A DNA stretch of 59,273 nucleotides from Candidatus Aminicenantia bacterium (GTDB lineage Bacteria; Acidobacteriota; Aminicenantia; JdFR-78). The stretch is taken from assembly GCA_046760445.1 (NCBI GenBank), contig JBHIEE010000003.1, forward strand, positions 1 through 59,273, in the 5' to 3' direction. The notes below the pieces were generated by a model. That model saw nothing but the letters and a program-made list of their open reading frames with translations, was not told where the DNA came from and ran no database searches. Positions 1 through 58,720 of this stretch are shown piece after piece. Numbering within the stretch: position 1 is the stretch's first letter; every line of letters begins with the position of its first letter. The position numbers were made by a program, and so were the translations under genes.

Positions 1-236
1 AAAGCAAGTAATTACGACTTAGAAGAGCGAACTTATCAGTTTGCTAAAAATATAGTTCTTTTTTGCAAGAAATTGCTTCTATAATAGAGAAATCATGATA
101 ATCGGTTTGGATATTGGAATTTGCTTGCCCTGGAGCATGCGAAGCATTGGTATAGGGGAATTTATTTGATATTTGGTGTTTGATATTTGGGGTTTTAACT
201 TAGGTGGAGGTGAAGCACAAAGACAGGATATGAAAG
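1..236 (+). mobile_element. Partial four-helix-bundle-associated repeat element: truncated gene remnant, heptamer right arm and GGAGGTGA-type end
   Basis: 1-76 matches 52931-53006 at 75/76 nt and encodes KASNYDLEERTYQFAKNIVLFCKKL, then a stop. The TTTGGATATTGGAATTTG...TTTATTTGATATTTGG arm follows. 206-236 resembles 38000-38030. Confidence 0.75.
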
Positions 237-293
237 TCCTGGCCCGTGTTTGATTTTTATGTCTGAAAAAACTTATATTAAGGAGGAGGTTTA

Positions 294-3125
294 ATGAAAA
301 AATTTACTATTATTTTGTTTGTCTTACTAATTAGTGTTACTTTTCTCTTAGCTCAAGATAAGCTTCAAGTCAAAGCTCAGGAAACCAAATATTCAACCAC
401 GGAGAAGCCAACTGATCCAATTACTCGACTAGAATCCTTTGAGCATCATTTCGCTCTAAAAAACAATTCTCTATTCAAAAACCTAAAATGGAGATCAGTC
501 GGCCCTCAAGTTCAGGGAGGTAGAATTGTTGATTTGGCTATTCCCAAAGGGAACCATTTCATCATTTATGCCGCTACTGCGTCAGGCGGCCTGTGGAAAA
601 CAGAAAACAATGGAACTACCTGGGAACCGATTTTCGATAACGAATCTTCAATAACCATTGGCGATATTGCTGTTGCTGATTCTGATCTCAATATAATTTG
701 GGTTGGTACTGGAGAGAATAATAGCAGCCGAAGTTCCTATTCCGGGACAGGAGTATTTAAGTCCACAGATGGTGGTAAAACCTGGCAGAATATGGGATTA
801 ACTGATACTCATCACATTGGTCGGATTGTTATCCATCCTGAAAATCCAGATATAGTCTATGTAGCTGCGATTGGACACTTATATACAGATAATGAAGAGC
901 GAGGAGTGTTTAAGACTCCAGATGGAGGTAAAAATTGGGAGAAAATATTATATATTAGTGATAAAGTAGGAGCGATTGATTTGGTTATGGACCCTTCAGA
1001 TAGTAATACTCTGTACGCTGCAGCTTGGGAGAGGAGTAGAAAAGCCTGGAATTTTGTTGAAGGTGGTGAAGAAAGTAGAATATACAAGACTACAGACGGT
1101 GGCAAAACTTGGAAGCAATTGACCAATGGTCTTCCTGCTGGAGAAAATGTGGGTCGGATTGGATTGGCGATTGCTCCTTCTAATCCTAATGTTATCTATG
1201 CATTAATTGATAATCAAGCTAAACGTCCAGAAGAGAAACCTGAAAAGAAAAAAGAAAAAGAAACATCAGGCATTACTCTCGAGCAGTTGGAGAAAATGAC
1301 TTCAGAAGAATTTCTTAAACTTGATCCCAAGAGAATTCAGCTCTTTTTGAAAGAGAACAATGTTCCTAAAGAATATAGTGCAGAAATGATAATTGATTTG
1401 GTTAGAAAAGGTCAGCTTGACCCTCCAACCATTGCTCAATATCTGCTTGATGCAAACCGGAGATTATTTGAGACAAACATTATTGGAGCAGAAGTCTATC
1501 GCTCTGATGATGGAGGTGAAACATGGCGAAAAATGAATGAAAAATATATTGATAATTTCTGCTACACTTATGGTTATTATTTTGGTAATATTCGTGTTTC
1601 TCCTGATAATGAGAATCAAATTTATATTCTTGGTGTACCTCTCTTAACTTCTAATGACGGAGGAAAAACTTTTCAATCAATTGGAGGAAGAGGTGTTCAT
1701 GCTGACCATCATGCTCTTTGGATTGACCCTAAAAATCCTGATCGGTTAATTGACGGAAATGATGGAGGTTTAAATTTTTCTTATGACCGGGGCAAGACTT
1801 GGCAGAAGATTAATAATTTACCTATTGGTCAGTTTTATACGATAACCGTTGATATGGAAAAACCATATAATATTTATGGTGGCTTACAGGACAATGGAGT
1901 AATGTATGGACCCAGCAATAGTATTCCTGGTGTTACTGATCCTTGGAAAACAATTTATGGTGGCGATGGCGCCTATGTTCAGATTGACTCTACTGACTCA
2001 AATATAGTCTATGCTGAATCTCAATTTGGAAATATATCAAGAATAAATAAAAAAGATGGCACCAAAAAAAACATCAAGCCTAAGGCTAAAATTGGTGAAA
2101 CTCCTTTAAGATATAACTGGCAAACTCCTTTTCTTATTTCCCATCACAACCCCTTTATTCTCTATTATGGAGCCAATAAATTATTTAAATCATTGGACAG
2201 GGGAGACCATTGGTGGCCTATTAGTGATGATTTAACCACTAATCTTCAACCTCAAGGAGACGTTCCTTATAGCACAATTACCACTATTTCTGAGTCTCCA
2301 ATTCGCCCTGGATTACTCTATGCTGGCACTGATGATGGTAATCTCTGGGTGACTAAAAATGATGGTGCTACCTGGGAAAAGATAAATCAAGGTTTACCCA
2401 AGAGATGGGTTAGCCGGGTCGAAGCTTCCCGTTTTGATGAAGGGACTGTTTATGTCAGTTTCACTGGATACAGAAATGATGATTTTGAAAAGTATCTTTT
2501 CAAATCTACTGATTATGGAAAAACCTGGGTTTCCGTTGCCAATAATCTTCCCTCAGAACCAATTAATGTTATAAGAGAAGATCCAAAGAATAAAAATATT
2601 CTTTATGTTGGGACTGATTTAGGAGTTTACATCACCATTGATGGCGGTCAAACTTGGCATTCTCTTTGCAATAATTTGCCAACCATTGCTGTTCATGATT
2701 TAATAGTTCATCCCAGAGATAATGATTTGGTGATAGGCACTCATGGTAGAAGTGTTTATGTTATGAATATTGAAAATATTCAGAAATTTGATGAAAAAAT
2801 ACAGGCTAAAGATGTTTATTTATTTGATATCAAGCCCGTAAAACTGAGAAGATATCGGTATGCTCCACAACCTCAGGCTGAGATTTATTATTATTTGAAA
2901 GAAAGTCAAAAAATACGAATTTCTATTCTCGATGATTCTGGAAAAGTGATTAGAAGACTTGAAGGAACTAATGATCCAGGATTTAATCTTGCTATCTGGG
3001 ATTTGAGGGTGGAAGACAAAGGTGAAAGAAAACAGTATGTTAAACCAGGAACCTATACTGTTGAACTTGCAGCTGAAAAGATTAAAATAAAGAAAAAAAT
3101 TGAAGTTCAGCTGTCCAAAAATTAA
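294..3125 (+). CDS. Secreted VPS10/BNR (Asp-box) repeat beta-propeller protein, glycosyl hydrolase-like
   Basis: Signal peptide, many SxDGGKTW Asp-boxes, C-terminal FlgD-Ig-like tail, AGGAGGAGG RBS. Confidence 0.85.
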   Translation: MKKFTIILFVLLISVTFLLAQDKLQVKAQETKYSTTEKPTDPITRLESFEHHFALKNNSLFKNLKWRSVGPQVQGGRIVDLAIPKGNHFIIYAATASGGLWKTENNGTTWEPIFDNESSITIGDIAVADSDLNIIWVGTGENNSSRSSYSGTGVFKSTDGGKTWQNMGLTDTHHIGRIVIHPENPDIVYVAAIGHLYTDNEERGVFKTPDGGKNWEKILYISDKVGAIDLVMDPSDSNTLYAAAWERSRKAWNFVEGGEESRIYKTTDGGKTWKQLTNGLPAGENVGRIGLAIAPSNPNVIYALIDNQAKRPEEKPEKKKEKETSGITLEQLEKMTSEEFLKLDPKRIQLFLKENNVPKEYSAEMIIDLVRKGQLDPPTIAQYLLDANRRLFETNIIGAEVYRSDDGGETWRKMNEKYIDNFCYTYGYYFGNIRVSPDNENQIYILGVPLLTSNDGGKTFQSIGGRGVHADHHALWIDPKNPDRLIDGNDGGLNFSYDRGKTWQKINNLPIGQFYTITVDMEKPYNIYGGLQDNGVMYGPSNSIPGVTDPWKTIYGGDGAYVQIDSTDSNIVYAESQFGNISRINKKDGTKKNIKPKAKIGETPLRYNWQTPFLISHHNPFILYYGANKLFKSLDRGDHWWPISDDLTTNLQPQGDVPYSTITTISESPIRPGLLYAGTDDGNLWVTKNDGATWEKINQGLPKRWVSRVEASRFDEGTVYVSFTGYRNDDFEKYLFKSTDYGKTWVSVANNLPSEPINVIREDPKNKNILYVGTDLGVYITIDGGQTWHSLCNNLPTIAVHDLIVHPRDNDLVIGTHGRSVYVMNIENIQKFDEKIQAKDVYLFDIKPVKLRRYRYAPQPQAEIYYYLKESQKIRISILDDSGKVIRRLEGTNDPGFNLAIWDLRVEDKGERKQYVKPGTYTVELAAEKIKIKKKIEVQLSKN

Positions 3126-3169: not shown

Positions 3170-4642
3170 ATGAAAAAACTATCATTTATTGTACTCCTAA
3201 TATTTTTTGGGGCAACCCTTCTCTTTGCCCAGACATCTTTTGATTTTGATAGGTTTTTTATCAATAAGACAATGCGGATTGATTATTACCACATTGGGGA
3301 TGCCAAGCAGGAATTTGTTACTTTGGACAAGGTCTATCAACAAGGAATCTGGGCAGGAAGCACGAAGAACCTCATTGATTGCTTTAACAATGGTCGCTAT
3401 TATGTCAAGATTTATGATTATTCTACTAACCAGATGATTTTCTCTAAGGGATTCGACAGCTATTTTGGGGAATACAAAACCACTAATGCAGCTCTTAAAG
3501 GGATTAAACGAACTTATCATGAGACAGTTCTCATTCCTTATCCCAAAAATAAAATTCAATTTACTCTTGAGGTGCGAGATCAGGATAATATGCTGCATCA
3601 GCTTTTCAGCCAGATAATAGATCCTAAGGGAGTTGATATCATTCGGGAGTCTCCTGTACAAGAAGTTAAAGTTTTCGAGTTCTTAAAAAGTGGTCATCCT
3701 CACAGAAAGGTGGATATTGCCTTTATTGCTGAAGGATACACTGCTTCGGAGGAAAGGAAATTCCGTTCAGATGTTCTTCGACTGCTCAAGGTCTTCTTCA
3801 ATCATAAGCCTTATAAATCTCGCAAGGACAAATTCAATATTTATGGAGTATTTAAGCCTTCTGATGAAAGTGGATGCGATGAGCCAACTTATGGAAGTTT
3901 TAAAAACACAGTTCTTAATTCAACTTTTAACTCTCTTGGTTCCCAGAGATATTTACTAACTGAAGATAATAAGAGTCTTCGGGATATTACTGCTTGTGTT
4001 CCTTATGATGCTCTATATATTCTTGTCAATACCAAGCGCTATGGTGGAGGAGGGATATATAACCTTTACTGCACAGTAATAGCTGATAATCAGTGGACTA
4101 ACTATGTTTTTCTCCATGAATTTGGTCATTCCTTTGCTGGTCTGGCGGATGAATATTATACTTCTACTGTTGCCTATAATGAATTCTATCCTCGAGGTGT
4201 GGAGCCGGTTGAGCCGAATATCACTGCCTTACTTGATCCAGAGAATCTAAAATGGAAGAATCTCTGCACTTCTGGGATTGAGATTCCTACTCCCTGGGAA
4301 AAAGAGGCTTTTGATCAGATGGATATGGAATATCAAAAGATTCGTCAAAAGATTAATAAAAAAATTGCTAAGATGAAGCGTGAAGGGGCTCCTGAATCTG
4401 AAGTCAAAAAAATAGAAGAAGAATCCGAAAGATTGTCTCGAGAACATGCTCAAAAAGTGGATGATTTCTTAAAGAAAAGTAAATATGCTGGCCAGGTGGG
4501 CACTTTTGAGGGAGCAGGGTATTCAGCTAAAGGACTTTATCGTCCAATGGTTGACTGCATCATGTTCACTAAAGGGGTTAAGCCTTTCTGTACGGTTTGT
4601 CAGCAAGCAATAATTCGAGTGATTAACCATTATACCCAATGA
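3170..4642 (+). CDS. Peptidase M64 (IgA peptidase family)
   Basis: Signal peptide, KTMRIDYYHIG N-terminal domain, HEFGHSFAGLADEY zinc motif, C-terminal CIM...FCxVC. Confidence 0.9.
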   Translation: MKKLSFIVLLIFFGATLLFAQTSFDFDRFFINKTMRIDYYHIGDAKQEFVTLDKVYQQGIWAGSTKNLIDCFNNGRYYVKIYDYSTNQMIFSKGFDSYFGEYKTTNAALKGIKRTYHETVLIPYPKNKIQFTLEVRDQDNMLHQLFSQIIDPKGVDIIRESPVQEVKVFEFLKSGHPHRKVDIAFIAEGYTASEERKFRSDVLRLLKVFFNHKPYKSRKDKFNIYGVFKPSDESGCDEPTYGSFKNTVLNSTFNSLGSQRYLLTEDNKSLRDITACVPYDALYILVNTKRYGGGGIYNLYCTVIADNQWTNYVFLHEFGHSFAGLADEYYTSTVAYNEFYPRGVEPVEPNITALLDPENLKWKNLCTSGIEIPTPWEKEAFDQMDMEYQKIRQKINKKIAKMKREGAPESEVKKIEEESERLSREHAQKVDDFLKKSKYAGQVGTFEGAGYSAKGLYRPMVDCIMFTKGVKPFCTVCQQAIIRVINHYTQ

Positions 4643-6194: not shown

Positions 6195-8180
6195 ATGAAA
6201 GGACTAATTAAATCTAAATCTTTCATCTTGGCTCTATTTATTTTATTTTCAATATCTTATGCCGTTGAAGAGACCCCCAAATATCTTACTGTGAATGATA
6301 TTTTGGACATCAAAAATGTGACAGAAACCCAGATTTCACCAGATGGGAAGTGGATATTGTATGTGGTTTCAGAAGCTGATTTTGAGCAAAATTTATATAA
6401 TTCTGATATCTGGCGAGTATCAGCTGAAGGAGGAGAGCCAGTTAAAATGACCAACAGCCCAAAAGTAGATTATTCCCCTCGTTGGTCACCTGATGGCAAG
6501 AAAATTGCTTTTATTTCTGGCAGAGAAGAAAAGAATCAAGTCTGGATTATTAATCCATTCGGTGGAGAGGCTGAAAGATTGACCAATTCAAAGACTGGAG
6601 TTAAATCTTTTGAATGGTTCCCTGACAGTCAGAAAATCGCCTATTTAGCCGCGGATCCTCCAACTGAGGAAGAGGAAAAGAAGAAAAAGGAAAAAGATGA
6701 CGCTTATCTCGTTGACAAGGATTTTAAGATGACTCATATCTGGGTTATTGACTTAGAAAAAAAAGAAGAGAAAAAAATTACCTCAGGAAATTTTGATGTG
6801 ATAAATTTTTCTATCTCTCCAGATGGAAAAAACATTACTTTTGCATCTCGGCCTACTCCCAAGGTTCCAGATTATTTCAATTCTGATATATTTATCGTTT
6901 CCTCCTCTGGTGGAGAAATAAAAGACATTGTTGTTCGAGAAGGAGTTGATACCAATCCCCGTTGGTCACCTGATGGACAAAAATTAGCCTTTATTTCTAA
7001 TAATAGGGGAGATTGGATTTCCAATACATACCTTTGTTTGGTTGATCTTGAGACAAAAGAAATTAAAACTATATCTCAGGAGTTTGATGAAAGAATCAAT
7101 GCCTTCTGGTGGGATGATCAAGGAAAGTATTTATATTTCAATACTAATAAAAGGATTTATCGTCACTTATTCAAAATTTCTGTGGAGGAAGGAAAAGCTC
7201 AACAATTAACTCCGGATGATGGTTACTATAGTTCATTCAGTTTTAATCAAAATTTCAAATGGATGAGTTTCATTAAACAGAATCCTTTATCTCCACATGA
7301 TGTTTATTTATCTTTAGTAAAAAAATTTATTCCTCGAAGACTGACTGAAATTAATCCCCAGATAAAGAATTTTGTTCTTGGGAAAACCGAGATAATTCAC
7401 TGGAGAAGTTCAGATGGAATGGAAATGGAAGGATTGTTAGTTAAACCCGTTAATTACACAGAAGGAAAGAAATATCCTTTATTAGTTATTGTCCATGGAG
7501 GACCAGCTGGGGTCTTCAGTTACCGATTTTTACCACGAAGGAGTGCTTATCCAATTCAAACAATGGCTGGGCTGGGGTATGCTATATTTATGCCTAATCC
7601 TCAAGGAAGTGGTGGATATGGGGAGAATTTCAGACGAGCCAATATTCGAGATTGGGGATTTGGTGACTATCAGGATATAATGACGGGAATAAATTATTTG
7701 ATTGACCTGGGAATTGCTGATCCTGAGAAATTAGGTATTATGGGCTGGTCTTACGGAGGTTATATGACTTCATGGGTGATTACTCAGACAGATAGATTTA
7801 AGGCAGCTTCTGTTGGTGCTGGGGTTACCAATGCCTACAGTTTTTACGGTCAAACAGATATTCCTGAGTTTATGGAAAATTATTTTGGTGCTCAACCCTG
7901 GCAGGATATAGAGGAATATGAAAAGCATTCAGCTATGTTTCACATTCAGAAAGCCCGGACCCCAACTTTGATTCAACATGGCGAAAAAGACTTAAGAGTG
8001 CCATTACCTCAAGGCCAGGAGCTTTATCTCGGACTCAAGAAAAATAATGTCCCAGTAGAATTTGTCATTTATCCTCGTCAAGGTCATAGTATCAGAGAGC
8101 CGAAACTTCGGAGGGATTCGATGGAGAGAAATATCAAGTGGTTTAATAAATGGATTCTTCAGACAGAGGAAAGAGACTAA
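6195..8180 (+). CDS. S9 family peptidase (dipeptidyl aminopeptidase/acylaminoacyl peptidase) with PD40 repeats
   Basis: GWSYGG nucleophile, D-x-R-V, GH near C-terminus, WSPDG repeats. ATG 6195 follows GGAGGAGG. Confidence 0.92.
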   Translation: MKGLIKSKSFILALFILFSISYAVEETPKYLTVNDILDIKNVTETQISPDGKWILYVVSEADFEQNLYNSDIWRVSAEGGEPVKMTNSPKVDYSPRWSPDGKKIAFISGREEKNQVWIINPFGGEAERLTNSKTGVKSFEWFPDSQKIAYLAADPPTEEEEKKKKEKDDAYLVDKDFKMTHIWVIDLEKKEEKKITSGNFDVINFSISPDGKNITFASRPTPKVPDYFNSDIFIVSSSGGEIKDIVVREGVDTNPRWSPDGQKLAFISNNRGDWISNTYLCLVDLETKEIKTISQEFDERINAFWWDDQGKYLYFNTNKRIYRHLFKISVEEGKAQQLTPDDGYYSSFSFNQNFKWMSFIKQNPLSPHDVYLSLVKKFIPRRLTEINPQIKNFVLGKTEIIHWRSSDGMEMEGLLVKPVNYTEGKKYPLLVIVHGGPAGVFSYRFLPRRSAYPIQTMAGLGYAIFMPNPQGSGGYGENFRRANIRDWGFGDYQDIMTGINYLIDLGIADPEKLGIMGWSYGGYMTSWVITQTDRFKAASVGAGVTNAYSFYGQTDIPEFMENYFGAQPWQDIEEYEKHSAMFHIQKARTPTLIQHGEKDLRVPLPQGQELYLGLKKNNVPVEFVIYPRQGHSIREPKLRRDSMERNIKWFNKWILQTEERD

Positions 8181-20115: not shown

Positions 20116-20193
20116 ATTCATAAATCGAAAGTCACAGAGTTTCAATAATCTATATTAAGATATGCTTCATTCTGTTTGGCAAGATCCTAAATC

Positions 20194-20446
20194 CCTGCCT
20201 GCCCCGTAGAACGGGGCCTCCGGCATGGAAGCAAACATATAAAACTAAAAACTTAAAATTTACAAAAAAAATGGTCAAGGATACGAGGATTTAAGGGTTC
20301 AAGTGGTTATTTCTTCACTCGAGTCCTTGAATCCTAGTTTTGATTTTTCATTTTTAGCTTTTCCTTTTTAGTTTATTAAAACTTCCATGAAAGCCATTCT
20401 CACCATCAATTTACACAATATCATTTAAGATCATTTGAAAACCCTC
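20194..20446. mobile_element. Nested palindromic element: micro-palindrome, AT-rich arms, octamer core and conserved 65-bp unit
   Basis: 20382-20446 is 58/65 identical to revcomp 55525-55589 and 52/65 identical to 27371-27435. The core stem 20286-20305/20316-20335 pairs at 16/20. Confidence 0.75.
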
Positions 20447-37902: not shown

Positions 37903-38032
37903 ATTGTGATTTAATTTGAGTTTGTTATTTGATATTTGGTGCCTGCCCCGTACATCCCGAGTACTCGGGACTACGGGGCGAGGAATTTGAGATTTTAATG
38001 GAGATGAAACCCAAAAACAGGATATGAAAACC
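37902..38032 (+). mobile_element. Right arm and end of the repeat element, with a two-tier palindrome insert
   Basis: TTATTTGATATTTGGTG and GGAGATGAAACCCAAAAACAGGATATGAAA align with 162-236. Insert at 37942-37983. Confidence 0.7.
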
Positions 38033-38093
38033 TTTAATAGTATTGCGTTTTCAAAGATGAAAAGGCTTAACTACGCTAGGAGGTAAAGTCTTG

Positions 38094-40341: not shown

Positions 40342-40581
40342 TAGCAGTGTCAAAAATAATATGAAAAAATATGAAAACCACGACTCGACTGAGCTCGTCG
40401 AAGTCAGAGAACACAGATGAATGGGAAATCCCAAATTACAAATCCCATCCCGAATACTCGGGACCAAATTCCAATGTTCAAAATTCATCCCGAGTGCTCG
40501 GGATGGTCATTTGGTATTTGGTGCTTGGGATTTGTGATTTATTAAAGTATGTGACCTGTGTGGTTAAATTTGACAATACTG
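40342..40581 (+). mobile_element. Nested non-coding MITE-like element: TIR shell, ACCACAGAG arms, heptamer arms and three micro-palindromes
   Basis: Ends TAGCAGTGTCAAA / TTTGACAATACT are shared with 52811-53146, and internal arms are collinear with that copy. Confidence 0.8.
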
Positions 40582-40615
40582 AAAAATTAACAGAGGAAGG
40601 AAAATGAGGAATTAA

Positions 40616-43958: not shown

Positions 43959-45893
<1,935 letters not shown>

Positions 45894-45894
45894 T

Positions 45895-46761
45895 TTATCT
45901 TTCCTCCAGAGCTTCTACTGCAGTCATAATATTCACCAACTCCTTAGTAATAAGGGTTTGTCTAATTTTATTCATTTCTAAAGACAGATCTTCTATTAAT
46001 TCTTGAGCGTTGTTAGTTGCGTTCTCCATAGCAATCATTCGAGCAGCATGCTCAGAAGCTATTGATTCTAAAAGATAATGATATATTTGGTTTTCAATGT
46101 ATTTTGGTAATAATTGATTAAGGATGGCTTCTGGATCAGGTTCATAAATATAATCAATTATTACTACTTCTTCTTTTGGTTCAAATCGAGGAAGAGGCAA
46201 CAGTCTATTGATTGTTATTTCTTGTCTTAAAATAGATTTAAACTCATTATAAATAACATAAACGGCATCAATCTCCTGATTAAGAAAAGGATCAATTAAC
46301 GATTTTACTATTTCCTTAACCTTCTCATACTCTAATTTCTGGAAAAGATTTATATATTTATTTCTCACAGGATAAGGTTCTTTTTTAAAATAAATTGCTC
46401 CTTTTTTTCCAATTAAAGTAAAAGAGATTTCAATTTCATCTTTCTTCTCTCCGATAAATTCCTCGGCTTTTTCTCTGATTTTTGAATTAAAAGCACCGCA
46501 AAGTCCTTTGTCAGCCGTAATGATGACCAGTTCGATTCTTTTCTCTTTCCGTTCAGATAAAAGGGGATGTAGAGATAAATCTACTCGAGAAGTTAGACTT
46601 TCAATTAATTCTGGAATTCTGTGAGAATAGGGCTTAATATGCAAAAGTGATTGTTGAGCTCTTTTTAATTTTACTGTGGCCACAGTTTTCATTGCTTTAG
46701 TAATCTGTTGAATATTTCTAATAGTTTTAATTTTTCTTCTTAAATCAAGAACTGTAGACAT
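45895..46761 (-). CDS. atpG: ATP synthase F1 gamma
   Basis: QITKAMK, DKGLCGAFN, SEHAARM.AM.NAT.NA. Confidence 0.97.
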   Translation of the reverse strand: MSTVLDLRRKIKTIRNIQQITKAMKTVATVKLKRAQQSLLHIKPYSHRIPELIESLTSRVDLSLHPLLSERKEKRIELVIITADKGLCGAFNSKIREKAEEFIGEKKDEIEISFTLIGKKGAIYFKKEPYPVRNKYINLFQKLEYEKVKEIVKSLIDPFLNQEIDAVYVIYNEFKSILRQEITINRLLPLPRFEPKEEVVIIDYIYEPDPEAILNQLLPKYIENQIYHYLLESIASEHAARMIAMENATNNAQELIEDLSLEMNKIRQTLITKELVNIMTAVEALEER

Positions 46762-49932: not shown

Positions 49933-49950
49933 TATAAAAGGCATATTTTA

Positions 49951-49981
49951 CAGTATTGGAATTTGAAAAATTCCAATACTG
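49951..49981. repeat. Perfect 14-bp stem hairpin with GAA loop
   Basis: CAGTATTGGAATTT-gaa-AAATTCCAATACTG. Confidence 0.85.
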
Positions 49982-50010
49982 CGTAAAAATGAATATTTTT
50001 CATTTATAAC

Positions 50011-50128
50011 AAGATAGTCAGGGGCAAACTTTGAAATTAGAGGTTTCTATGGAAGCCGAAATCAAAAGATACCTCTTTGAAGTTTCAGGCCTGCCTGCCG
50101 CAGGCAAGGGTTTACCCCTGACTATCTT
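50011..50128. repeat. Long REP-like hairpin interrupted by a 20-bp micro-palindrome
   Basis: 50011-50038 pairs 24/28 with 50081-50089 plus 50110-50128. Inner stem 50039-50048/50067-50076. Insert at 50090-50109. Confidence 0.85.
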
Positions 50129-50149
50129 AAATATAATAGGAGAAGAAAA

Positions 50150-52729
50150 ATGAGGTGGGATAAATTCACTGTAAAATCAGTCGAAGCATTTCAGCAAGCT
50201 CAGACTAAAGCAGAGAGTTTAGGGCATCAAGAATTGAGACCAGAGCATCTTCTTTGGGCTCTTTTGAATCAACCAGAGAGTGTGGTAGTCTCAATTTTAA
50301 ACAAGGTCGGGGTTAACAATGAAAAAATTTTGCAGGAATTAGAAAATTTTTTGGAAAAACTCCCAAAGATTTCAGGTGGAGAAGTTTATCTCTCTCCGGA
50401 TTTAAAAAAAATAATAGATAGTTCATTTAAAGAAGCTGAAAAATTTAAAGATGAGTATGTTTCCACTGAACATTTATTTCTGGCGATCCTGAAAGAAGAA
50501 CAGTTCCTGGCTTCGAAAATATTAAAGGATAATGGTGTTACCGAGGGTGCTGTTTTAAAAGCATTAAGAAGTATTAGAGGCTCCCAGCGAATCACAGACC
50601 CTAATCCCGAGGATAAGTATCAAGCTCTTCAAAAATATGGGCGTGATCTCACAGAATTAGCTCGACAGGGCAAATTAGACCCAGTGATTGGTCGTGATGA
50701 TGAAATAAGGCGGGTTGTTCAGGTTTTATCCAGAAGAACCAAAAATAATCCGGTCTTGATTGGAGAAGCTGGAGTAGGAAAAACAGCAATTGTTGAGGGG
50801 CTGGCTCAGAGAATAGCTAATGGAGATGTGCCCGACACTTTAAAAAATAAAAAAATTGTTGCATTGGATTTAGGGGCTTTAATTGCTGGAACAAAATATC
50901 GGGGAGAATTTGAGGATAGATTGAAGGCTGTGCTTAGAGAAATTACTGATGCGCAGGGAGAAATAGTTCTTTTTATAGATGAACTTCATACCATCATAGG
51001 AGCTGGAGCAGCTGAAGGAGCAGTGGATGCTTCAAATATGTTAAAACCTCCTTTGGCGCGAGGAGAGCTTCGGTGTATTGGAGCGACTACTTTAAATGAG
51101 TATAAAAAATATATTGAAAAAGATGCTGCTTTAGAAAGGAGGTTTCAGCAGGTTTATGTTGGAGAGCCTACTGTTGAAGAAACTATTTCTATTTTAAGAG
51201 GCCTTAAAGAAAAATACGAAGTTCATCATGGAGTGAAAATAAAGGATTCAGCCTTGGTTGCTGCTGCTACCTTGTCAAATCGGTATATAACTGATCGGTA
51301 TTTACCAGATAAAGCAATTGACCTGATTGATGAAGCAGCTTCCCATATAAGGATAGAAATTGACAGCCTGCCGGTTGAGATTGATGAAATAGAAAGGAAA
51401 ATTATTCAACTGGAAATTGAAAAACAGGCTTTAAAAAAGGAAAAAGATAAAGCTTCTCAGGAGAAAATAAACATAATCGAAAAGAAATTAGCTGATTTGA
51501 AAGAAGAAAGAGATCGAATGAAAGCCCATTGGCAGGGAGAGAAAGAAGCAATTGAGAAAATTAAACGGCTCAAAGAACAAATTGATAAATTGAAAATAGA
51601 AGAGCAGAATGCCGAAAGACGAGGAGATTTAGAGAAAGTGGCTGAAATAAGATATGGTAAATTGATTGAATTAAATAAAAAAATTGAAGAGGCCACAAAA
51701 CAATTAGCCAAAATTCAGGCTCGAGGCAAAATGCTTAAGGATGAAGTAGATGAAGAGGATATTGCCGAGATAGTTTCAAAATGGACAGGAATTCCAGTCT
51801 CAAAAATGTTAGAGGGAGAAATTGAAAAGCTGATTAAGATGGAAGATAATTTAAGAAAGAGGGTAATTGGTCAGGATCATGCAGTAAAAATAGTTTCTGA
51901 TACCATAAGAAGAGCAAGGGCTGGTATCCAGGATCCAAATCGTCCTCTTGGTTCTTTTGTTTTTTCAGGGCCCACTGGCGTAGGTAAAACTGAATTGGCT
52001 CGTGCATTAGCAGAGTTTCTTTTTGACGACGAGAGAGCAATGGTTAGACTTGATATGTCTGAATATATGGAAAGACACTCAGTTGCTCGATTAATAGGAG
52101 CTCCTCCTGGTTATGTTGGTTTTGAAGAAGGAGGTCAGTTAACAGAAGCAATAAAAAGGAGACCTTATTCCATTATTCTTTTAGATGAAATTGAAAAAGC
52201 TCATTCAGATGTTTTTAATATATTGCTTCAAGTTTTGGACGACGGACGATTAACAGATGGGCAAGGAAGAACAGTTGATTTCAAGAATACGGTGATTATT
52301 ATGACCAGTAATCTTGGTAGCCAGTTGATTACTGAATTGAGCGGAGATTATCAAAAAATAGAAGAAAAAATTCAAGAAATTTTGAGACAAAATTTCAGGC
52401 CGGAGTTTCTAAATAGGATCGATGATATAATTGTTTTCAAGCCTCTGTCCAAAGAAATCATTTTAAAAATCGTAGACTTACAGATAGCTCAATTAGAAAA
52501 AAGATTGAAGGATAAGAAAATAAAAATTGAAATGCCCCCAAAAGTGAAAGAGCTTTTGGCTGAAAGAGGATATGATCCTGTTTTTGGCGCTCGACCATTA
52601 AAAAGAACAATTCAGCGAGAAGTCGAAAATCCATTAGCTATTAAAATACTCCAGGGTGAATTTTCAGAGGGAGATACTATTAATGTAGATGTAGATCCTC
52701 AGAATGAATTGATTTTTAAGAAAAAATAA
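50150..52729 (+). CDS. clpB: ATP-dependent chaperone ClpB
   Basis: Clp N-domain, GEAGVGKT, long M-domain coiled coil, [13 protein letters not shown]. Confidence 0.97.
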
Positions 52730-52810
52730 TAAGAGGGATAACTATTGCTCTTCTAATCTGGATTGTTTCTTTAATTAATGATAGTATATTATTGATGAAA
52801 ATAAATAATT

Positions 52811-53146
52811 TGGTAGTGTCGAAAAGAATATGAAAACCCCAGAGAACATAGAGAAATGAAAAATTCCAAATTACAAATCACAAATTCCAAATAAGTTCCA
52901 ATGACTAAAATCTCAATGACCGAAACAAAAAAAGCAAGTAATTACGACTTAGAAGAGCGAACTTATCAGTTTGCTAAAAATATAGCTCTTTTTTGCAAGA
53001 AATTGCCTCGAACTATTTCAAATAGAGAATATATAAAACAAGTAATCGGTTTGGATATTGGAATTTGGGATTTATTTGATATTTGGAGCTTGAGATTTGT
53101 GATTTAATATAATAGGTGGTCTCTGTGGTTAAATTTGACAATACTA
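52811..53146 (+). mobile_element. Nested MITE-like element containing an internally deleted four-helix-bundle gene
   Basis: TIRs TGGTAGTGTCGAA/TTTGACAATACTA, AACCCCAGAG/CTCTGTGGTT arms, inverted heptamer arms 52862-52923 and 53047-53105. Confidence 0.8.
52901..53107 (+). pseudogene. Truncated four-helix-bundle protein (23S rRNA IVP / bAvd-like, TIGR02436-type)
   Basis: YDLEERTYQFAK...CKKLP...KQVI is a typical family N-terminus. The expected RS..S..AN..E core and C-terminal half are missing, and the ORF runs into the repeat arm. Confidence 0.8.
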
Positions 53147-53170
53147 ATTATTTTTTTTAAGGAGATAAAT

Positions 53171-53392
53171 ATGAAAGAAGAAGTAGAAAAAGCATTGGCT
53201 GAAATCAGACCTCATTTACAGGCTGATGGAGGTGATATTCAATTAGTAGAGGTTACTTCGGAAGGAGTGGTTAAGGTTAAATTATTGGGTGCCTGTGAGG
53301 GGTGTCCGATGAAGCAAATGACTTTAACCCAAGGAATAGGACAGTTTCTTAAAAAGAAAATTCCTGAGGTTAAAAGTGTAGAAACTGTTTAA
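53171..53392 (+). CDS. NifU-C/Nfu domain Fe-S carrier protein
   Basis: IRPHLQADGGD, GACEGCP. ATG 53171 follows AAGGAGA. Confidence 0.93.
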   Translation: MKEEVEKALAEIRPHLQADGGDIQLVEVTSEGVVKVKLLGACEGCPMKQMTLTQGIGQFLKKKIPEVKSVETV

Positions 53393-53459
53393 TTCCTTTA
53401 TATTACTGATTTTTTGAAGGGGGGTGTATTCTATCAAAAGGATTTAGTTAAATTTCTAA

Positions 53460-53488
53460 TTGACAAGAGTTTAAAAACTAAATATATT
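53460..53488 (+). promoter_or_regulatory. sigma70 promoter
   Basis: TTGACA-17-TATATT. Confidence 0.6.
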
Positions 53489-53589
53489 AAACAAAAGAGA
53501 AGTTAAAATGAAAAAGAAGGAGGGTGAGTACTTTTTGAATATGTCTTAAACTAAATAGTCTTAGTTTTAGAAAAGAAGTTATTTAAGGT

Positions 53590-55494
53590 ATGATGAAAAT
53601 GGATGATAAAGAGAGAGACGAGTTAGAAAGAAACCCCACCGAGGTTACTCTCCCGTATAAAGAATTGATTGAAAGGGCAAACGATATCATTTATTCCCTG
53701 GATGAGGAAGGATATATTACGTATTCCAACCGTGAGGCAAGTGAATATTTAGGATATTCAAAAGATGAGATTTTAAATTTACATTTTTCAGAATTAATTC
53801 CTGAAAAATATCACAAACAGGCTTTTAAACTGCTTCAGACTACTCTTAAAAACGGTGAAATCAGAAATGCAGAAATAATAGTTCGGAAAAAAAATGGAGA
53901 AGAAGTATGGATGGAATGTAATTCAAGGGCTATTGTGGAAGAGGGAAAGGTGGTCAGAGTAATAGGGGTGTTGAGAGACATTAATTATCGAAAAAAAGCT
54001 GAAGAATTATTCTTGAAAAAAGAGAAAGAGTATCAAGTACTGTTTGAGCGTACAGGAAATGCCACGGCTATAGTTGATCAAGAGTTTAGATTACTGAGGG
54101 TGAATAAGAAATTTACAGAAATGACTGGTTTTTCCGAAAAAGAAATGAAAGATAAAATTTCTTTTTTTGAATTATTTCCTGAGTATGAGAAAAACCGGGT
54201 ATATATTTATTATCAAAATAGAATGGAAGAGAAAAAGGAAGAGGCGCCTTTTAGATGTGAACTTATGACTAAAAATAAAGAGATTAAAAGTGTGGAAATA
54301 GATTTTCAATTTATTCCTGAGGTAAAGAGAGCGGTAGTCAATATTCAGGATTTAACAGAACAAAAGAAATTAGAGGAACAGATTCTTCATTCGGAAAAAC
54401 TCTCTACTCTTGGACAGATGATCGCGAGTATTGCTCATGAGCTTAACAATCCTCTTTCGGCAGTTGTTGGCTTTTCAGAATTACTATTAGGTGCGGAATG
54501 CCAAGGAGAGACTAGAGAAATGTTGGAAAAAATTAATAATGATGCTCAGCGCTGTCATAGAATTATTAATAATCTGTTGAGTATTGTTCGTAGTCGGACA
54601 TTTGAGAAAAAATATATTGATATAAATGAAGTAGTAGAAAAAACATTAGAGATTAAAAATTATGAACTGAAAATAGATAATATTAAAGTTGAGAAAAAGC
54701 TTGCACCAGAATTACCTCGGACCATGGCTGACTGGCATCAAATTCAGCAAGCAGTTTTAAATTTAATTAATAATGCTCATTATGCTATGGTTAAAGAGAA
54801 AGGAGAGGGGAAGTTAATCATTGGGACCAAACTTAAAGAATCAAAGATTCTGATTGAAATAAGTGATGATGGACCAGGGATTCCCGAAGATGCACTTCCC
54901 AAAATTTTTGATCCATTTTTTACCACCAAAGAAGACACTCGCAGTGCCGGGTTAGGACTGTCTATTGTTCAACGAATAATTAGAGACCATCAAGGAGAAA
55001 TAAGAGTTTCAAGTGAAGTAGGACAAGGTTCTACTTTTACTGTTGGATTACCAGTTTTTATAGAAGAAGAGCTTGTTCAGGGAGAGGAAAGGCCTTCCCC
55101 TGAGAAGGAAATATCAAAGATAGAGAAAAAAGTATTGATTGTGGAGGATGAGCCTTCTGTGGCTGACCTTTTCAAGTATATTCTTAACAAATATGGGTGT
55201 GAAGTAGAAATAGCCAGAAATGGGATGGAAGCTTTTAAGATTCTTCAGGAAAGAGAGTTTGATTTTATAATTTCAGATATTCGGATGCCTGGTATGGATG
55301 GGAAGATGTTATACAAAACAATAAAGCAGAGGAATATGTTTAAAGCGGATAGTATTATTCTTACTTCAGGTGATATATTAGGGGATCAAACTCAAGAATT
55401 CATTCGTGCTTCTAAAATTAAATTTCTTCCCAAACCATTTCGAGAAAGAGATTTATTAGAAATATTGGAAGAAATTTTGCATCGTAAAGACTAA
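53590..55494 (+). CDS. Cytoplasmic hybrid histidine kinase (2x PAS-HisKA-HATPase-REC)
   Basis: Two PAS/PAC domains, AHELNNPL, N/G1/F/G2 boxes, receiver VEDE...DIRMP...KP. Confidence 0.93.
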   Translation: MMKMDDKERDELERNPTEVTLPYKELIERANDIIYSLDEEGYITYSNREASEYLGYSKDEILNLHFSELIPEKYHKQAFKLLQTTLKNGEIRNAEIIVRKKNGEEVWMECNSRAIVEEGKVVRVIGVLRDINYRKKAEELFLKKEKEYQVLFERTGNATAIVDQEFRLLRVNKKFTEMTGFSEKEMKDKISFFELFPEYEKNRVYIYYQNRMEEKKEEAPFRCELMTKNKEIKSVEIDFQFIPEVKRAVVNIQDLTEQKKLEEQILHSEKLSTLGQMIASIAHELNNPLSAVVGFSELLLGAECQGETREMLEKINNDAQRCHRIINNLLSIVRSRTFEKKYIDINEVVEKTLEIKNYELKIDNIKVEKKLAPELPRTMADWHQIQQAVLNLINNAHYAMVKEKGEGKLIIGTKLKESKILIEISDDGPGIPEDALPKIFDPFFTTKEDTRSAGLGLSIVQRIIRDHQGEIRVSSEVGQGSTFTVGLPVFIEEELVQGEERPSPEKEISKIEKKVLIVEDEPSVADLFKYILNKYGCEVEIARNGMEAFKILQEREFDFIISDIRMPGMDGKMLYKTIKQRNMFKADSIILTSGDILGDQTQEFIRASKIKFLPKPFRERDLLEILEEILHRKD

Positions 55495-55524
55495 TAAATT
55501 TTACTTACCCACCATCTTTTTCTC

Positions 55525-55841
55525 GAGGATTTTCAAATGACCTTAAATGATATTATATATATTGATGGTGAGAATAGCTTTTATGGAAGCTCTAAATAAA
55601 TCAAAATTCAAAAATCAAAGATAAAAATGACAGAGGAAAAATATAAAAATAGTGCTGCAGTTGAGCGGTGCTGCAGTGCTGCAGTCAAAAAAAATCAACT
55701 GCAGCACCGCAGAACTATTATATTAGTTTTGACTTTTGATATTTAATATTTGATTTTTATAGAGGGGTGAAGCCGATCCCGCCTGCCTGTCCCCCCCCCG
55801 AGTGCTCGGGGTCGGGCAGGGGCAGACAGGAGTACTCGGGA
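55525..55841 (+). mobile_element. Nested palindromic element: 65-bp unit, heptamer arms, octamer core, GGGGTGAAG end and multi-tier micro-palindromes
   Basis: Homologous to 27161-27435 (revcomp) and 20382-20446. Nest at 55775-55841. Confidence 0.8.
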
Positions 55842-55919
55842 GAAAATCTTGATCACAACAGGATTTTCAGAGATGAAGGGCTTCTTATTAGTGTCAAGGT
55901 AGATAATGAAAACTGTTTC

Positions 55920-55928
55920 TGGTATAAT
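55920..55928 (+). promoter_or_regulatory. Extended -10 promoter for galU
   Basis: TGGTATAAT, 23 nt before ATG. Confidence 0.55.
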
Positions 55929-55951
55929 GATTTTTCCAAATAGAGAGAACC

Positions 55952-56818
55952 ATGATTGAAAAAGCAATTATTCCAGCAGCAGGATTTGGAACAAGGTTTT
56001 TGCCAGCAACTAAGTGTCTTCCTAAGGAAATGTTGCCGGTAGTAGACAAGCCACTTATCCAATATGGAGTGGAAGAAATAATTTCCTCTGAAATAAAAAA
56101 TATTCTGATAATTACCAGCCGAGGGAAAGGAGTTATTGAGGATTATTTCGATATTAATTTTGAATTAGAAAGTTTCTTGATTCAAAAAAATAAAGAGGAT
56201 TTAGTGAATGAGATAAAAAAAGTGGCTGACTTAATTAATATTTTTTATCTCCGGCAGAAAGAGGCATTAGGTTTAGGACATGCAGTGTTAATTGGTGAAG
56301 AATTTATCGCTGGGGAACCATTTGCTGTTTTGTTACCAGATGACATAATTGACGCTGAAAAACCTTGCCTGAAACAATTGATTGAAATTTATTCTGAGAC
56401 AAAGTGTTCTGTGGTTGCTCTTGAGAAAGTAGATGAAGAAGGCACTCGGAAATATGGAATAATTAAACCAAAGCAAATTTCAGACAGATTATTTCAAATT
56501 GAAGATATTATAGAAAAGCCTGGCCCAGAAAAAGCCTTCTCAGATTTGGCTGTTATCGGACGATATGTCTTTAATCCAGAGATTTTTTCAGCTCTTAAGA
56601 AAACCCGTCCTGATAAAAAAGGTGAAATTCAATTAACTGATGCAATTGATATCCTTCAAAAAGCAAAGCCTGTTTATGGACTTTTGGTTGAAGGGAAACG
56701 CTACGATGCAGGGGATAAATTTGGGTTCATCAAAGCAACTATTGAATTAGCTTTAAAAAGAAAAGAGTTCAGAAATAAGCTAAAGAAATTTCTTATTTCT
56801 TTAGAGTTAGATGACTAA
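55952..56818 (+). CDS. galU: UTP--glucose-1-phosphate uridylyltransferase
   Basis: PAAGFGTRFLPATK..PKEMLP, GLGHAV, EKP, GEIQLTDA. Confidence 0.96.
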   Translation: MIEKAIIPAAGFGTRFLPATKCLPKEMLPVVDKPLIQYGVEEIISSEIKNILIITSRGKGVIEDYFDINFELESFLIQKNKEDLVNEIKKVADLINIFYLRQKEALGLGHAVLIGEEFIAGEPFAVLLPDDIIDAEKPCLKQLIEIYSETKCSVVALEKVDEEGTRKYGIIKPKQISDRLFQIEDIIEKPGPEKAFSDLAVIGRYVFNPEIFSALKKTRPDKKGEIQLTDAIDILQKAKPVYGLLVEGKRYDAGDKFGFIKATIELALKRKEFRNKLKKFLISLELDD

Positions 56819-57224
56819 GAAATATAAATATTTCTCAACAATGGCTGATATGGGGATGGAGGTAGAAGGAGAAAATTTAACCCAACTCTTTTCCAATGCA
56901 GCTCAAGGAATGTTTAATTTAATCGCTTCCTCCCACAAATTTACTCCAAAAGAAGAATTTGAGATTGAAATTACTGGGGAAAACTGGGAGGAACTTTTAT
57001 TTAAATGGCTAGGTGAGTTGCTTTTTTATTATGATGCATATAAGATATTTTTAGTAGAGTTTCAAGTTAAAGAAATCACCCCCTATAAATTAAGGGCTTC
57101 TGTCAGAGGAGAAAAAATAAAAAATAAGAAAGTGGAGAGGGAAATAAAAGCAGTGACCTATCACAATTTAGAAATAACTCAGAAGAACAACAGCTGGAAG
57201 GTGAAAGTTCTATTTGATTTATAA
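56811..57224 (+). CDS. Archease
   Basis: N-terminal AD motif, EIKAVTYH, C-terminal FDL; adjacent to rtcB. Confidence 0.93.
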   Translation: MTKKYKYFSTMADMGMEVEGENLTQLFSNAAQGMFNLIASSHKFTPKEEFEIEITGENWEELLFKWLGELLFYYDAYKIFLVEFQVKEITPYKLRASVRGEKIKNKKVEREIKAVTYHNLEITQKNNSWKVKVLFDL

Positions 57225-57237: not shown

Positions 57238-58683
57238 ATGAAGGAAAAATTAAAAAAGATAACTAATTATAAATGGATGCTGCCTCAAGATGTGGATTCC
57301 CGGATGAGAGTGCCCGGGATTATTTTTGCTACAGAAGAACTGATGAAAAAAGCGGTCGAAGATGAATCATTGATTCAGGTAAGAAACGCCGCTACTTTGC
57401 CAGGTATTGTAAAAGCTTCTTTTGCCATGCCAGATATTCATTACGGGTATGGGCTGCCTATTGGTGGAGTAATTGCTACTGACTGGGAGAGTGGAATTGT
57501 TTCTCCTGGTGGGGTAGGATTTGATATAAATTGTGGGGTGAGATTGCTTTCTACTAATTTATTCCTGAAAGACATAAAAGATAAAAAGAAACTTTTAGTT
57601 GAGGCTCTCTATTATTATATTCCCACAGGAGTCGGTTCAAGAGGGAAATTACATCTTTCTCATCAACAGGAAAAAGAAGTTTTAGCGAAAGGAGCGAGAT
57701 GGGCAGTAGAGAAAGGATATGGCACTAAAGAAGATTTAGAATCCACGGAATCTTATGGATCTTTGCCAGGAGCTAATTCAAGTAAGGTGAGTCACAAGGC
57801 TCTGGAGAGAGGAGCTCAGCAATTAGGCACCTTAGGCTCAGGTAATCATTTTCTTGAAATTCAATATGTAGATGAGGTCTATGACCCAGAGCTGGCTAAA
57901 ATTTTTAACTTAGAAAAAAATAAAATTACTATTATGATTCATACTGGTTCAAGGGGGTTAGGTCATCAGATTGCCACTGATTATTTGGAGGTTATGGGCC
58001 GAGCTTTGAGAAAATATAATATTGTTCTTCCTGACAGACAATTGGCCTGTGCTCCTATAAATTCTCCTGAGGGTCAGAATTATATTGCGGCAATGAAAGG
58101 GGCAGCCAATTATGCCTGGGCAAATCGTCAGGTTCTTATGCACTGGACCAGGGAGACTATTTGCCGAGCTTTAAATGCTTCTCCAAAAGAATTAGGTTTA
58201 GAACTAATTTATGATCATGCTCATAATATTGTTAAAAAAGAAGAGCATATAGTGGAAGGCAAGAAAAAATACCTTGCTGTTCACCGTAAAGGAGCAACCA
58301 GAGCATTTCCTCCTGGTCATTCTGAACTTCCAGCCAAATATCGCTCCATTGGACAACCAGTCATTATACCCGGAGATATGGGCAGATATTCTTATTTGCT
58401 GGTTGGCACCAAGGAGGCAATGGAAGAGAGTTTTGGATCAAGTTGTCATGGAGCAGGTCGAGTGTTAAGTCGACATAAAGCTATTCAACAGGCACGAGGA
58501 AGGTCAATCAGTCAGGAATTAGAGAAAGATGGGATATTTGTCAGAGCAGCTGACAGGAGAACAGTTAGTGAGGAGATGCCCGATGCTTATAAAGATGTTT
58601 CAATGGTAGTAGATGCCATCGCAGCTGCCCGCATTTCCAAAAAAGTACTCCGCTTAAGACCTTTGGTTGTAATTAAAGGCTGA
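57238..58683 (+). CDS. rtcB: RNA-splicing ligase RtcB (archaeal/eukaryote-like long form)
   Basis: MPDIHYGYG.PIGG, DINCG, GSGNHF, HTGSRG, HN, HRKGAT, HGAGR, EE.P.AYK, IKG. Confidence 0.97.
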   Translation: MKEKLKKITNYKWMLPQDVDSRMRVPGIIFATEELMKKAVEDESLIQVRNAATLPGIVKASFAMPDIHYGYGLPIGGVIATDWESGIVSPGGVGFDINCGVRLLSTNLFLKDIKDKKKLLVEALYYYIPTGVGSRGKLHLSHQQEKEVLAKGARWAVEKGYGTKEDLESTESYGSLPGANSSKVSHKALERGAQQLGTLGSGNHFLEIQYVDEVYDPELAKIFNLEKNKITIMIHTGSRGLGHQIATDYLEVMGRALRKYNIVLPDRQLACAPINSPEGQNYIAAMKGAANYAWANRQVLMHWTRETICRALNASPKELGLELIYDHAHNIVKKEEHIVEGKKKYLAVHRKGATRAFPPGHSELPAKYRSIGQPVIIPGDMGRYSYLLVGTKEAMEESFGSSCHGAGRVLSRHKAIQQARGRSISQELEKDGIFVRAADRRTVSEEMPDAYKDVSMVVDAIAAARISKKVLRLRPLVVIKG

Positions 58684-58685
58684 TA

Positions 58686-58720
58686 ACAGAAAACAGGAGA
58701 CAGAAGTCAGAAACCAGAAA
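58686..58720 (+). repeat. Five heptamer tandem units (solo arm)
   Basis: ACAGAAA-ACAGGAG-ACAGAAG-TCAGAAA-CCAGAAA. Confidence 0.75.

Follow-up and report, generated by a model that had tools for sequence, protein, structure and literature searches.

The small dispersed repeats of Nostoc and other cyanobacteria (SDR1-8 and the STRR heptamers) are reportedly 20-30 nt long, nested in other repeats and in heptamer arrays, and mostly intergenic. Other repeats with which comparison can be made are the miniature inverted-repeat transposable elements (MITEs) derived from IS4-family insertion sequences (IS) and the high-copy repetitive extragenic palindromes (REPs and REPINs) that accompany RAYT genes. 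Full IS with transposase genes, such as IS1397, ISKpn1 and ISPpu9, land in REP palindromes (PMC1525189, PMC12288879). The intervening sequences (IVS) of 23S rRNA, found in Coxiella burnetii, Leptospira, Xanthomonas and Brucella, place an open reading frame (ORF) of the S23p/four-helix-bundle family in the loop of an inverted-repeat stem; in C. burnetii, the IVS in helix 45 has a 28-bp terminal stem and tandem GACAGAT heptamers before a decaying S23p ORF, is excised by RNase III, and is suggested to have arisen by transposition and horizontal transfer (PMC4990558). The stretch analyzed here, called the window, is the whole of a 59,273-nucleotide contig (C3) of a metagenome bin (G000) of a Candidatus Aminicenantia bacterium. 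The spacers between its housekeeping genes hold nested repeats that are probably a pile-up of four or more independent classes of selfish DNA, either non-coding or decayed.

The metagenome-assembled genome (MAG) consists of 3.06 Mb in 269 contigs with 34.8% G+C and 97% completeness; positions are in window numbering, C followed by a number designates other contigs of the MAG, and G001, G002 and so on designate other genomes of the class. The runs that contain the stretch are all labelled hydrothermal vent metagenomes, and no RNA run is among those listed as carrying it. The 48 window ORFs scanned against Pfam are housekeeping genes, including an ATP-synthase gene cluster, ClpB, Mfd, ComEC, RtcB and purine synthesis genes; five of the 48 have no family and none matches a transposase, reverse transcriptase or integrase family, as the initial annotation of this DNA had noticed. 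That annotation described layered modules shared by at least nine spacers, and by BLASTN of the window against its own MAG such modules are real: multi-copy DNA reaches a depth of up to 60 and, three short stretches aside, is confined to eight spacers (1-275, 20193-20225, 20248-20335, 20344-20446, 27161-27437, 37925-38070, 40346-40590, 49948-50049, 52813-53006, 53043-53149 and 55525-55830). The claim that no module lies inside a coding sequence (CDS) holds for nearly all of this DNA, the exceptions being the three short stretches of depth 2-3, two of them in genes matching BNR and PD40 repeats. The third (39929-40016, 88 nt) is in a DUF5916-family gene (38094-40292, minus strand) and has two further matches in the genome. 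Eighteen of the 19 spacer modules tested are found at 2-60 places in the genome, with 45817-45897 being unique; in the reversed genome, none of the 19 was found. Genome-wide, 16-mers that occur at least five times cover 48,016 nt, 83% of which is outside a crude CDS mask, and 225 of the 708 spacers of at least 150 nt contain at least 20 such repeat bases. Of the inverted tandem arms described at first, those of period 7 and 8 are listed by Tandem Repeats Finder in the window spacers and have fold z scores (relative to shuffled sequence; whole elements were compared with dinucleotide shuffles) of -3.4 to -4.9, except 20262-20340 at -1.4; no row was listed at the places of the supposed period 9, and the ACCACAGAG array assigned to it is instead a sub-terminal inverted repeat of the shell element described next.

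The outer shell that had been proposed exists as an element of approximately 130-360 bp with ends AGTAGTGTCAAA...TTTGACAATACT, of which the genome contains 32 right ends, 16 left ends and 12 complete copies. In the 12 complete copies the terminal inverted repeats (TIRs) are imperfect (AGTAGTGTCAAA versus AGTATTGTCAAA, then AACCACAGAG at both ends). Copies in C16, C42, C24, C61, C106 and C28 were seen by eye to be flanked by direct repeats of 8-9 nt, all AT-rich (ATTGAGTT, TTTTTATA, AAAATTTG, GATTTCAT, CTAATATAA, AAATCATAA); for the copies at 40343 and in C6 the two flanks match inexactly, and at three or four others (C62, C11 and C5 among them) the picture is unclear. The shell is a conventional MITE with TIRs and an 8-9-bp target-site duplication. 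The 10-mer GGTAGTGTCA, which is the first ten bases of the shell, has eight occurrences in the bin, of which seven form the left ends of MITEs and the other is located 176 nt past the stop codon of an IS4-family transposase gene (NF033591, 151.4 bits versus a cut-off of 152) on the 1.5-kb contig C269. This match makes the IS4-family gene a lead, though not proof, for the identity of the shell's autonomous partner; no full-length partner with shell ends is assembled in the bin, which has eight matches to DDE_Tnp_1 and a weak one to DDE_3. Three inverted TIR-like pairs 1.8-1.9 kb apart (C22, C37, C13) were rejected as the parent transposon since they enclose ordinary genes and no transposase. 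In its TIRs, the AT-rich target duplications, the length range, the noncoding content, the at least 12 complete copies and the ten bases matched beside an IS4-family gene, the shell resembles MITEs from IS4-family IS, but its interior is a decayed, heptamer-armed four-helix-bundle cassette and not a deleted transposase gene. Arms of the type that brackets the helix-bundle gene of C91 are present in all 12 copies, and their centers range from approximately 125 nt of gene to a few codons, which indicates that the progenitor captured a cassette that later decayed. A 24-nt insert is present in two of the 12, giving filled/empty pairs. The clpB-nifU spacer of G001 is 45 nt long, lacks the element and has an extra ORF of approximately 180 aa, and G002 reads N there.

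The gene within the cassette belongs to PF05635, for which G000 has 26 matches (25 above the cut-off), the highest number among 31 genomes of the class (0-11 in the others). The four-helix-bundle remnant noticed at the center of two copies corresponds to the initial ~44 codons of a gene of this family (52916-53045 and 1-116): tblastn aligns 52916-53040 and 1-116 with the N-terminal ends of the full genes at C91, C83 and C33, with 55-57% identity over 44-47 aa (E values of 1.7e-11 to 5.6e-10). The 63-aa remnant has no Pfam family at E values up to 0.01, and its identity therefore depends on the tblastn matches to full paralogs. The full genes at C91, C83 and C33 are located between housekeeping genes and are directly bracketed by inverted runs of degenerate heptamers. 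Among 24 scorable genes, the flanking inverted-repeat score exceeds the 95th percentile of 390 control genes for 13 and the 99th for four; by eye, arms are present on both sides of 17, one-sided or otherwise arranged at six, and absent from one. Close paralogs have a common arm type (C41/C69, 85% identity; C28/C15, 88%; C83/C91/C33, 67-70%), other subfamilies have different arms, and in relatives nine of 11 helix-bundle loci have arms, each with its own sequence. One locus of G016 (L011; C237, ~26200-26514) has its helix-bundle gene among CRISPR-like direct repeats and not heptamer arms. A cassette also fills the gap between mtnA and tsaD, which is approximately 490 nt in G000 versus -1 to 5 nt in G001, G002, G006 and G011, the four of four relatives that retain the gene pair, and the comparison makes this insertion datable; the cassette (C83:9552-10044) is bounded by an 11-nt direct repeat, AGGATTTAAAA, within which the heptamer of the cassette's arms, GGATTTA, is found. 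A strong Shine-Dalgarno-like AGGAGG is included in the upstream one of the two AGGATTTAAAA copies. Gene-less derivatives outnumber full helix-bundle genes in the genome, and the match of truncated copies to the window remnant stops at two recurring points, with approximately five copies each, which suggests that already-deleted copies multiplied.

These cassettes may be regarded, by analogy, as the IVS design placed outside rRNA: the helix-bundle ORF in the loop of an inverted-repeat stem, the tandem heptamers just 5' of the ORF and the decay of the ORF are all features of the IVS (PMC4990558). The cassettes here differ in being intergenic and not in helix 9, 25 or 45 of 23S rRNA, and in having 26 gene copies with subfamily-specific arms, an excess of gene-less derivatives and one derivative inside a MITE. 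Those studied are situated between protein genes, and two on the contig that bears 16S rRNA lie outside the rRNA; the 23S rRNA gene has no match in the MAG, so that a cassette resident in it could not be sought. No canonical transposase was seen in or beside the cassettes studied. The initial annotation named Avd of diversity-generating retroelements as a homolog of four-helix-bundle proteins; the reverse transcriptase of such a retroelement is not seen beside the genes here, and the MAG at 97% completeness has no match to RVT_1. At the level of titles and abstracts, no literature was found in which genes of PF05635 are connected with heptamer arms at sites other than rRNA. A comparison of the window hairpins with the flanks of helix-bundle genes did not discriminate (eight of 12 match, versus a mean of 6.4 of 12 for random intergenic sets). 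On C129 (2359-4738), there are two helix-bundle genes, 97% identical to each other, and wholly upstream of each is a closed GTGCTGCA 8-mer hairpin in place of one arm per side, of the same type as the hairpins at 27262-27335 and 55651-55720 of the window.

The commonest invader of the other repeats is a 16-nt perfect palindrome, TCCCGAGTACTCGGGA, with 80 exact copies in G000 (none of the reversed pattern) and approximately 158 if up to two changes are allowed; searches of 30 relatives and of 400 further genomes from the phylum found none. Of 141 copies, 131 are not fully within the crude CDS mask, and 102 of 148 are within other repeats, compared to 303 of 2000 random intergenic sites, an enrichment that targeting or hitch-hiking could each explain. 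Since its hosts are themselves repeats, their paralogs supply filled and empty states. In the seven such pairs that are readable, the difference in length is 19 nt six times and 18 nt once; where it is 19 nt, a 3-nt direct repeat (TGG, CCA, TTG or CAA) bounds the palindrome. Some pairs share flanks, which leaves at least four independent events. Identical 3-nt flanks are found at 23 of 158 copies versus 7.2 +/- 2.5 for shuffled pairs, and the excess is smaller at 2 nt and gone at 4 nt. The proposal that the elements target pre-existing hairpins was not borne out for the 16-mer, which lies between complementary 8-nt flanks in four of 158 cases, where 4.8 are expected from shuffled pairs. In this it is also unlike the IS that land in REP palindromes, which it otherwise resembles as mobile DNA entering palindromic repeats: those are full IS (PMC1525189, PMC12288879), whereas the invaders here are 16-50 nt and apex targeting is unsupported for the commonest of them.

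In tRNA-Ser(tga) and tRNA-Ser(cga) (C5:20606-20695 and C6:32114-32203) the variable arm is the 16-mer palindrome with one or two changes (TCCCGAGTAATCGGGA and TCCCGAGTAATTGGGA). The orthologs of tRNA-Ser(tga) in four relatives share only the base of this arm (TCCCG..CGGGA) and differ at its apex. On C66, near 7233 and 7971, two tRNA-Asp-like fragments have the exact palindrome where intact tRNA-Asp has 12 other bases. Judging from these sequences, the 16-mer may have been derived from the variable arm of tRNA-Ser, or may have invaded that arm. Similar matches in relatives were set aside: that of G001 is in 16S-rRNA-like sequence, two of G021 are outside the tRNA-Ala and tRNA-Ile genes of an apparent rRNA operon, and none of the three is in a tRNA-Ser gene.

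The remaining layer comprises a second composite family (ends AGGGTTTTCA...TGAAAACCCT, 215-370 bp, at least seven complete copies) and a set of GC-rich inserts. Copies of the second family have a common tail and AT-rich arms and differ in their central 8-mer hairpins, which bears out the exchange of layers between loci that had been proposed. The hairpin of the copy at 20248..20446 resembles the arms of a helix-bundle gene at C76:5355 (95% over 20 nt), in a test that did no better than controls. The Shine-Dalgarno sequence of maf, GGAGGTGAA (27157-27172, minus strand, 5 nt before the ATG), is located inside the end of a multi-copy element, and it is apparently the repeat that supplies maf with a ribosome-binding site. 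The GC-rich inserts are nested as had been described, with two layers at 37940-37984 and three at 55777-55842, but not all are palindromes: the 33-nt insert (22 genome places, none in the reversed genome), the 24-nt insert (five places) and the ~50-nt insert fold no better than shuffles (z -1.4, -0.1 and +0.2, respectively). Palindromes of the type CCTGCCTG...CAGGCAGG are found at 25 genome places, some of them invaded. Filled forms of the outer palindrome GCCCCGTA...TACGGGGC are present at 37940-37984 and in roughly a dozen more genome copies, and the unfilled form at 20205-20221. The two inner layers of the nest at 55777..55842 recur at C68 (three times) and C6; its fold has a z score of -1.2 relative to GC-rich shuffles. 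A single-copy 10-bp GC-rich stem (GTCGCAAGCA...TGCTTGCGAC) at 18543-18570, upstream of an amino-acid permease gene, is outside all of the repeat families. The coordinates of the features are collected in Table 1.

Table 1. Repeat features in the spacers of the window, by position, with the evidence for each.
Position	Strand	Feature	Evidence
1..116	+	Truncated PF05635-type remnant; contig begins inside it	Paralog of 52931-53045; 97% over 79 nt to 52931-53009
117..195		Right heptamer arm (TTTGATA/TTTGGNN type) with 33-nt insert at ~130-162 that is absent from paralog 53046-53107	Alignment
196..275		End module with GGAGGTGAAG, second family	Depth profile, family ends
20193..20227		GC-rich palindrome CCTGCC/GCCCCGTAGAACGGGGC, uninvaded form of the outer palindrome at 37940-37984	z -2.8; 4 places
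20248..20446		Second-family copy: AT-rich arms, GGATTCAA-type 8-mer hairpin 20270-20336, 87-nt tail 20359-20445	Alignment, depth
27161..27437		Second-family copy, left to right: Shine-Dalgarno-like end 27162-27172; AAAAATC arm; ~50-nt insert 27202-27251; GTGCTGCA 8-mer hairpin 27262-27335; tail 27348-27434	Alignment, depth; hairpin z -4.9
37925..38070		Arm fragment, two-layer palindrome and second-family end module (37985-38070)	Depth; z -5.6
37940-37984		Two-layer palindrome GCCCCGTA (CA TCCCGAGTACTCGGGA C) TACGGGGC; 16-mer at 37955-37970	Sequence
40346..40582		Complete shell MITE, no gene remnant; 24-nt insert 40381-40404	z -5.1; flanking direct repeat GAAAA(A)TTA
40448-40463, 40488-40503		Two 16-nt palindromes in the shell at 40346..40582, one per arm	Sequence
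45817..45897		Single-copy ATTGAGA heptamer hairpin between ATP-synthase genes (alpha/beta-family 44396-45817; PF00231 45895-46761)	z -3.4
49948..50049		Six-copy element with near-perfect AT-rich hairpin 49952-49984	Depth; z -8.9
50011..50128		19-nt inverted pair (95% complementary) around CCTGCCTGCC...GCAGGCAAGG palindrome 50090-50108	Sequence
52811..53149		Complete shell MITE with four-helix-bundle gene remnant: left end 52811-52852; left AAATTCC arm 52853-52905; remnant (~44 codons) 52916-53045; right arm 53046-53107; right end 53108-53149	tblastn, end matches, z -3.8
55525..55775		Second-family copy, opposite orientation to 27161-27437; GTGCTGCA hairpin 55651-55720	Alignment; z -4.3
55777..55842		Three-layer nest: TCCCG/AGTACTCGGGA split by CCTGCCTG...CAGACAGG, itself split by CCCCGAGTGCTCGGGG	Sequence
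58683..58725		ACAGAAA-type heptamer run after rtcB	2 genome places

The initial annotation treated the nested parts as one system, a reading that is replaced here by independent classes, the outermost of which is an ordinary MITE. Its view of the layers as independent elements inserted into one another agrees with the filled/empty pairs of the 16-mer, the 24-nt insert and the 33-nt insert, with the target duplications of the shell, with the same tail and arms around different hairpins, and with gene-less derivatives that outnumber full genes. In the model that is favored, insertions would gather in the few tolerant stretches of a compact genome and so end up inside one another. The shell would be a cut-and-paste element, probably moved by an IS4-family DDE transposase encoded elsewhere, that captured a cassette consisting of a four-helix-bundle gene in the loop of a long hairpin with arms of 7-8-base tandem repeats. 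Such cassettes would move into new sites, where internal deletion would remove the gene; the gene-less hairpins left behind would persist or multiply, and every subfamily of the protein would retain the arm repeat proper to it. The helix-bundle protein may have a part in this, and the active form of the hairpin may be DNA or RNA. The 16-nt palindrome would insert with a 3-nt duplication, mostly inside other repeats, and the composite family of 215-370 bp together with rarer GC-rich inserts of 19-50 nt would make up the fourth layer.

A single coordinated system, in which four-helix-bundle proteins act in trans to recognize, copy or maintain repeat-armed hairpins, the gene-less hairpins are non-autonomous derivatives and the micro-palindromes belong to the same machinery, is considered unlikely. 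It would account for the co-variation of gene and arm type, for the different arm of each gene in relatives, for the coincidence in G000 of the highest PF05635 count with an abundance of gene-less arms, for the lack of a canonical transposase in or beside the cassettes studied and for the arm heptamer within the 11-nt repeat that flanks the C83 cassette; but a gene and arms that simply move as one unit would be expected to co-vary just as much, no catalytic activity is known for PF05635, the shell itself bears the classical marks of a transposon, no connection of the 16-mer with the helix-bundle gene is detectable, and the window hairpins match helix-bundle flanks about as often as random intergenic sets do. 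It is a doubtful, though somewhat less remote, proposition that the heptamer-armed cassette by itself is a new kind of mobile element that needs no canonical transposase, in which a pentamer-forming protein would recognize the hairpins, of DNA or RNA, that its own repeat arms form and would help these to be copied into arm-like AT-rich sites such as AGGATTTAAAA; the rRNA IVS would then be its best-known residence, the heptamer arrays of bacteria would be its fossils, and the 16-mer may derive from the tRNA-Ser variable arm (with which, in this genome alone, it agrees at 15 of 16 positions). That the micro-palindromes are a REP/RAYT system, with REP-like hairpins moved as single-stranded DNA by a Y1 transposase, is rather improbable. 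The bin does have eight Y1_Tnp matches, several of them single-copy genes of approximately 320 aa, and three IS200-like or RAYT-like genes (C41:~20190-20522, C76:~7134-7385, C83:~4195-4524) are each flanked by their own hairpins in the manner of REPs; those of C41 and C76 are multi-copy, and their families differ from all window families. The 16-mer, moreover, is extragenic and high-copy as REPs are, but it is a perfect palindrome, mostly single and not in inverted doublets, that lacks the GTAG or CGTC head of REPs (PMC3733652). It is absent from the flanks of all seven Y1 loci inspected (two of them at contig ends), which have other hairpins or none. The filled/empty pairs show a 3-nt direct repeat, whereas insertion of the IS200/IS605 type would not be expected to leave one. 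By analogy, the micro-palindromes may be said to behave like the small dispersed repeats described in cyanobacteria and partly like REPs, while failing the REP/RAYT tests made; the likeness to the cyanobacterial repeats is one of behavior only, as these belong to another phylum and have unrelated sequences, whereas here a 16-nt perfect palindrome makes a net gain of 19 nt.

Two further explanations are less likely still. It would be quite surprising if the elements were mainly functional structures (terminators, RNase III sites or donors of ribosome-binding sites), kept by selection and spread by recombination: whole shell elements fold better than shuffles (z -5.1 for 40346-40582 and -3.8 for 52811-53149), the Shine-Dalgarno sequence of maf comes from an element end, and known rRNA IVS are cut by RNase III (PMC4990558), but target duplications, filled/empty pairs and lineage-restricted bursts mark selfish spread, as do decaying gene remnants and insertions that interrupt other elements, and several modules do not fold. 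Least credible of all is an assembly artefact, in which the composite spacers would be chimeras of repeats that collapsed in a metagenome bin. Many MAG contigs begin or finish in these repeats, and the Logan contigs of X1, the probable source run, break inside nearly every one of them (at 37954/37960, 40375/40524, 49979/49995 and 55590/55801). Breaks at repeats are, however, expected from a short-word assembly graph, the architecture recurs in the 12 complete shells and at least seven second-family copies on different contigs with unique flanks, copies bear matching target duplications, and a 144-nt contig spans 52956-53099 without differences. Of the other runs, X2 yielded short pieces identical to the window, and the short pieces from X3 are diverged and lie within genes. 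In one record of X3 a different palindrome (CCTGCCCGACGGCAGGCAGG) stands where the window has 37940-37981; another, which joins 52371 to 53174 via 28 other letters, was set aside because its sides are undocumented and it would delete the end of clpB.

Several points weigh against the pile-up of independent classes as it is put forward here. The 3-nt duplication on insertion of the 16-mer is a tendency and not a rule (23 of 158 copies), and an asymmetric 19-mer inserted without duplication fits the filled/empty pairs almost as well. Since a copy can also be multiplied along with a larger element that contains it, the copies do not each represent an independent event. The link of the shell to the IS4-family gene consists of ten bases, and the other end of the IS on C269 is outside the assembly; mobilization in trans, and the identity of the enzymes that would act, are things we infer. 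No clean filled/empty allele is present in X1, X2 or X3 contigs over 37000-56999, and since the X1 contigs break in the repeats, the interiors of 40375-40524 and 55590-55801 have the MAG assembly as their sole source. The estimated contamination of the MAG is 8.6%, a figure that also bears on the possibility of an artefact, and the crude CDS mask covers 86% of the genome. The nearest relatives compared are of another genus, so the 'empty' sites are comparisons at the level of family or class.

What is new in this analysis is the dissection of the spacers into layers, the target duplications of the shell with the lead to IS4 and the deletion series inside a MITE, the 19-nt gain that accompanies the 16-mer, and the empty mtnA-tsaD sites. 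The locus shows several minimal classes of selfish DNA sharing and reshaping the scarce noncoding space of a compact genome, in which intact, truncated and gene-less states of a cassette, as well as the capture of a cassette by an ordinary MITE, can be seen side by side. The 16-base element, whose insertion seems to duplicate 3 bases, would be near the lower size limit for mobile DNA. If it were true that the helix-bundle protein acts on its own arms, PF05635, the rRNA IVS and heptamer arrays would be explained together. The repeats break metagenome assemblies and donate ribosome-binding sites and long hairpins to operons, with consequences for annotation and for the reading of operon structure in uncultured phyla.

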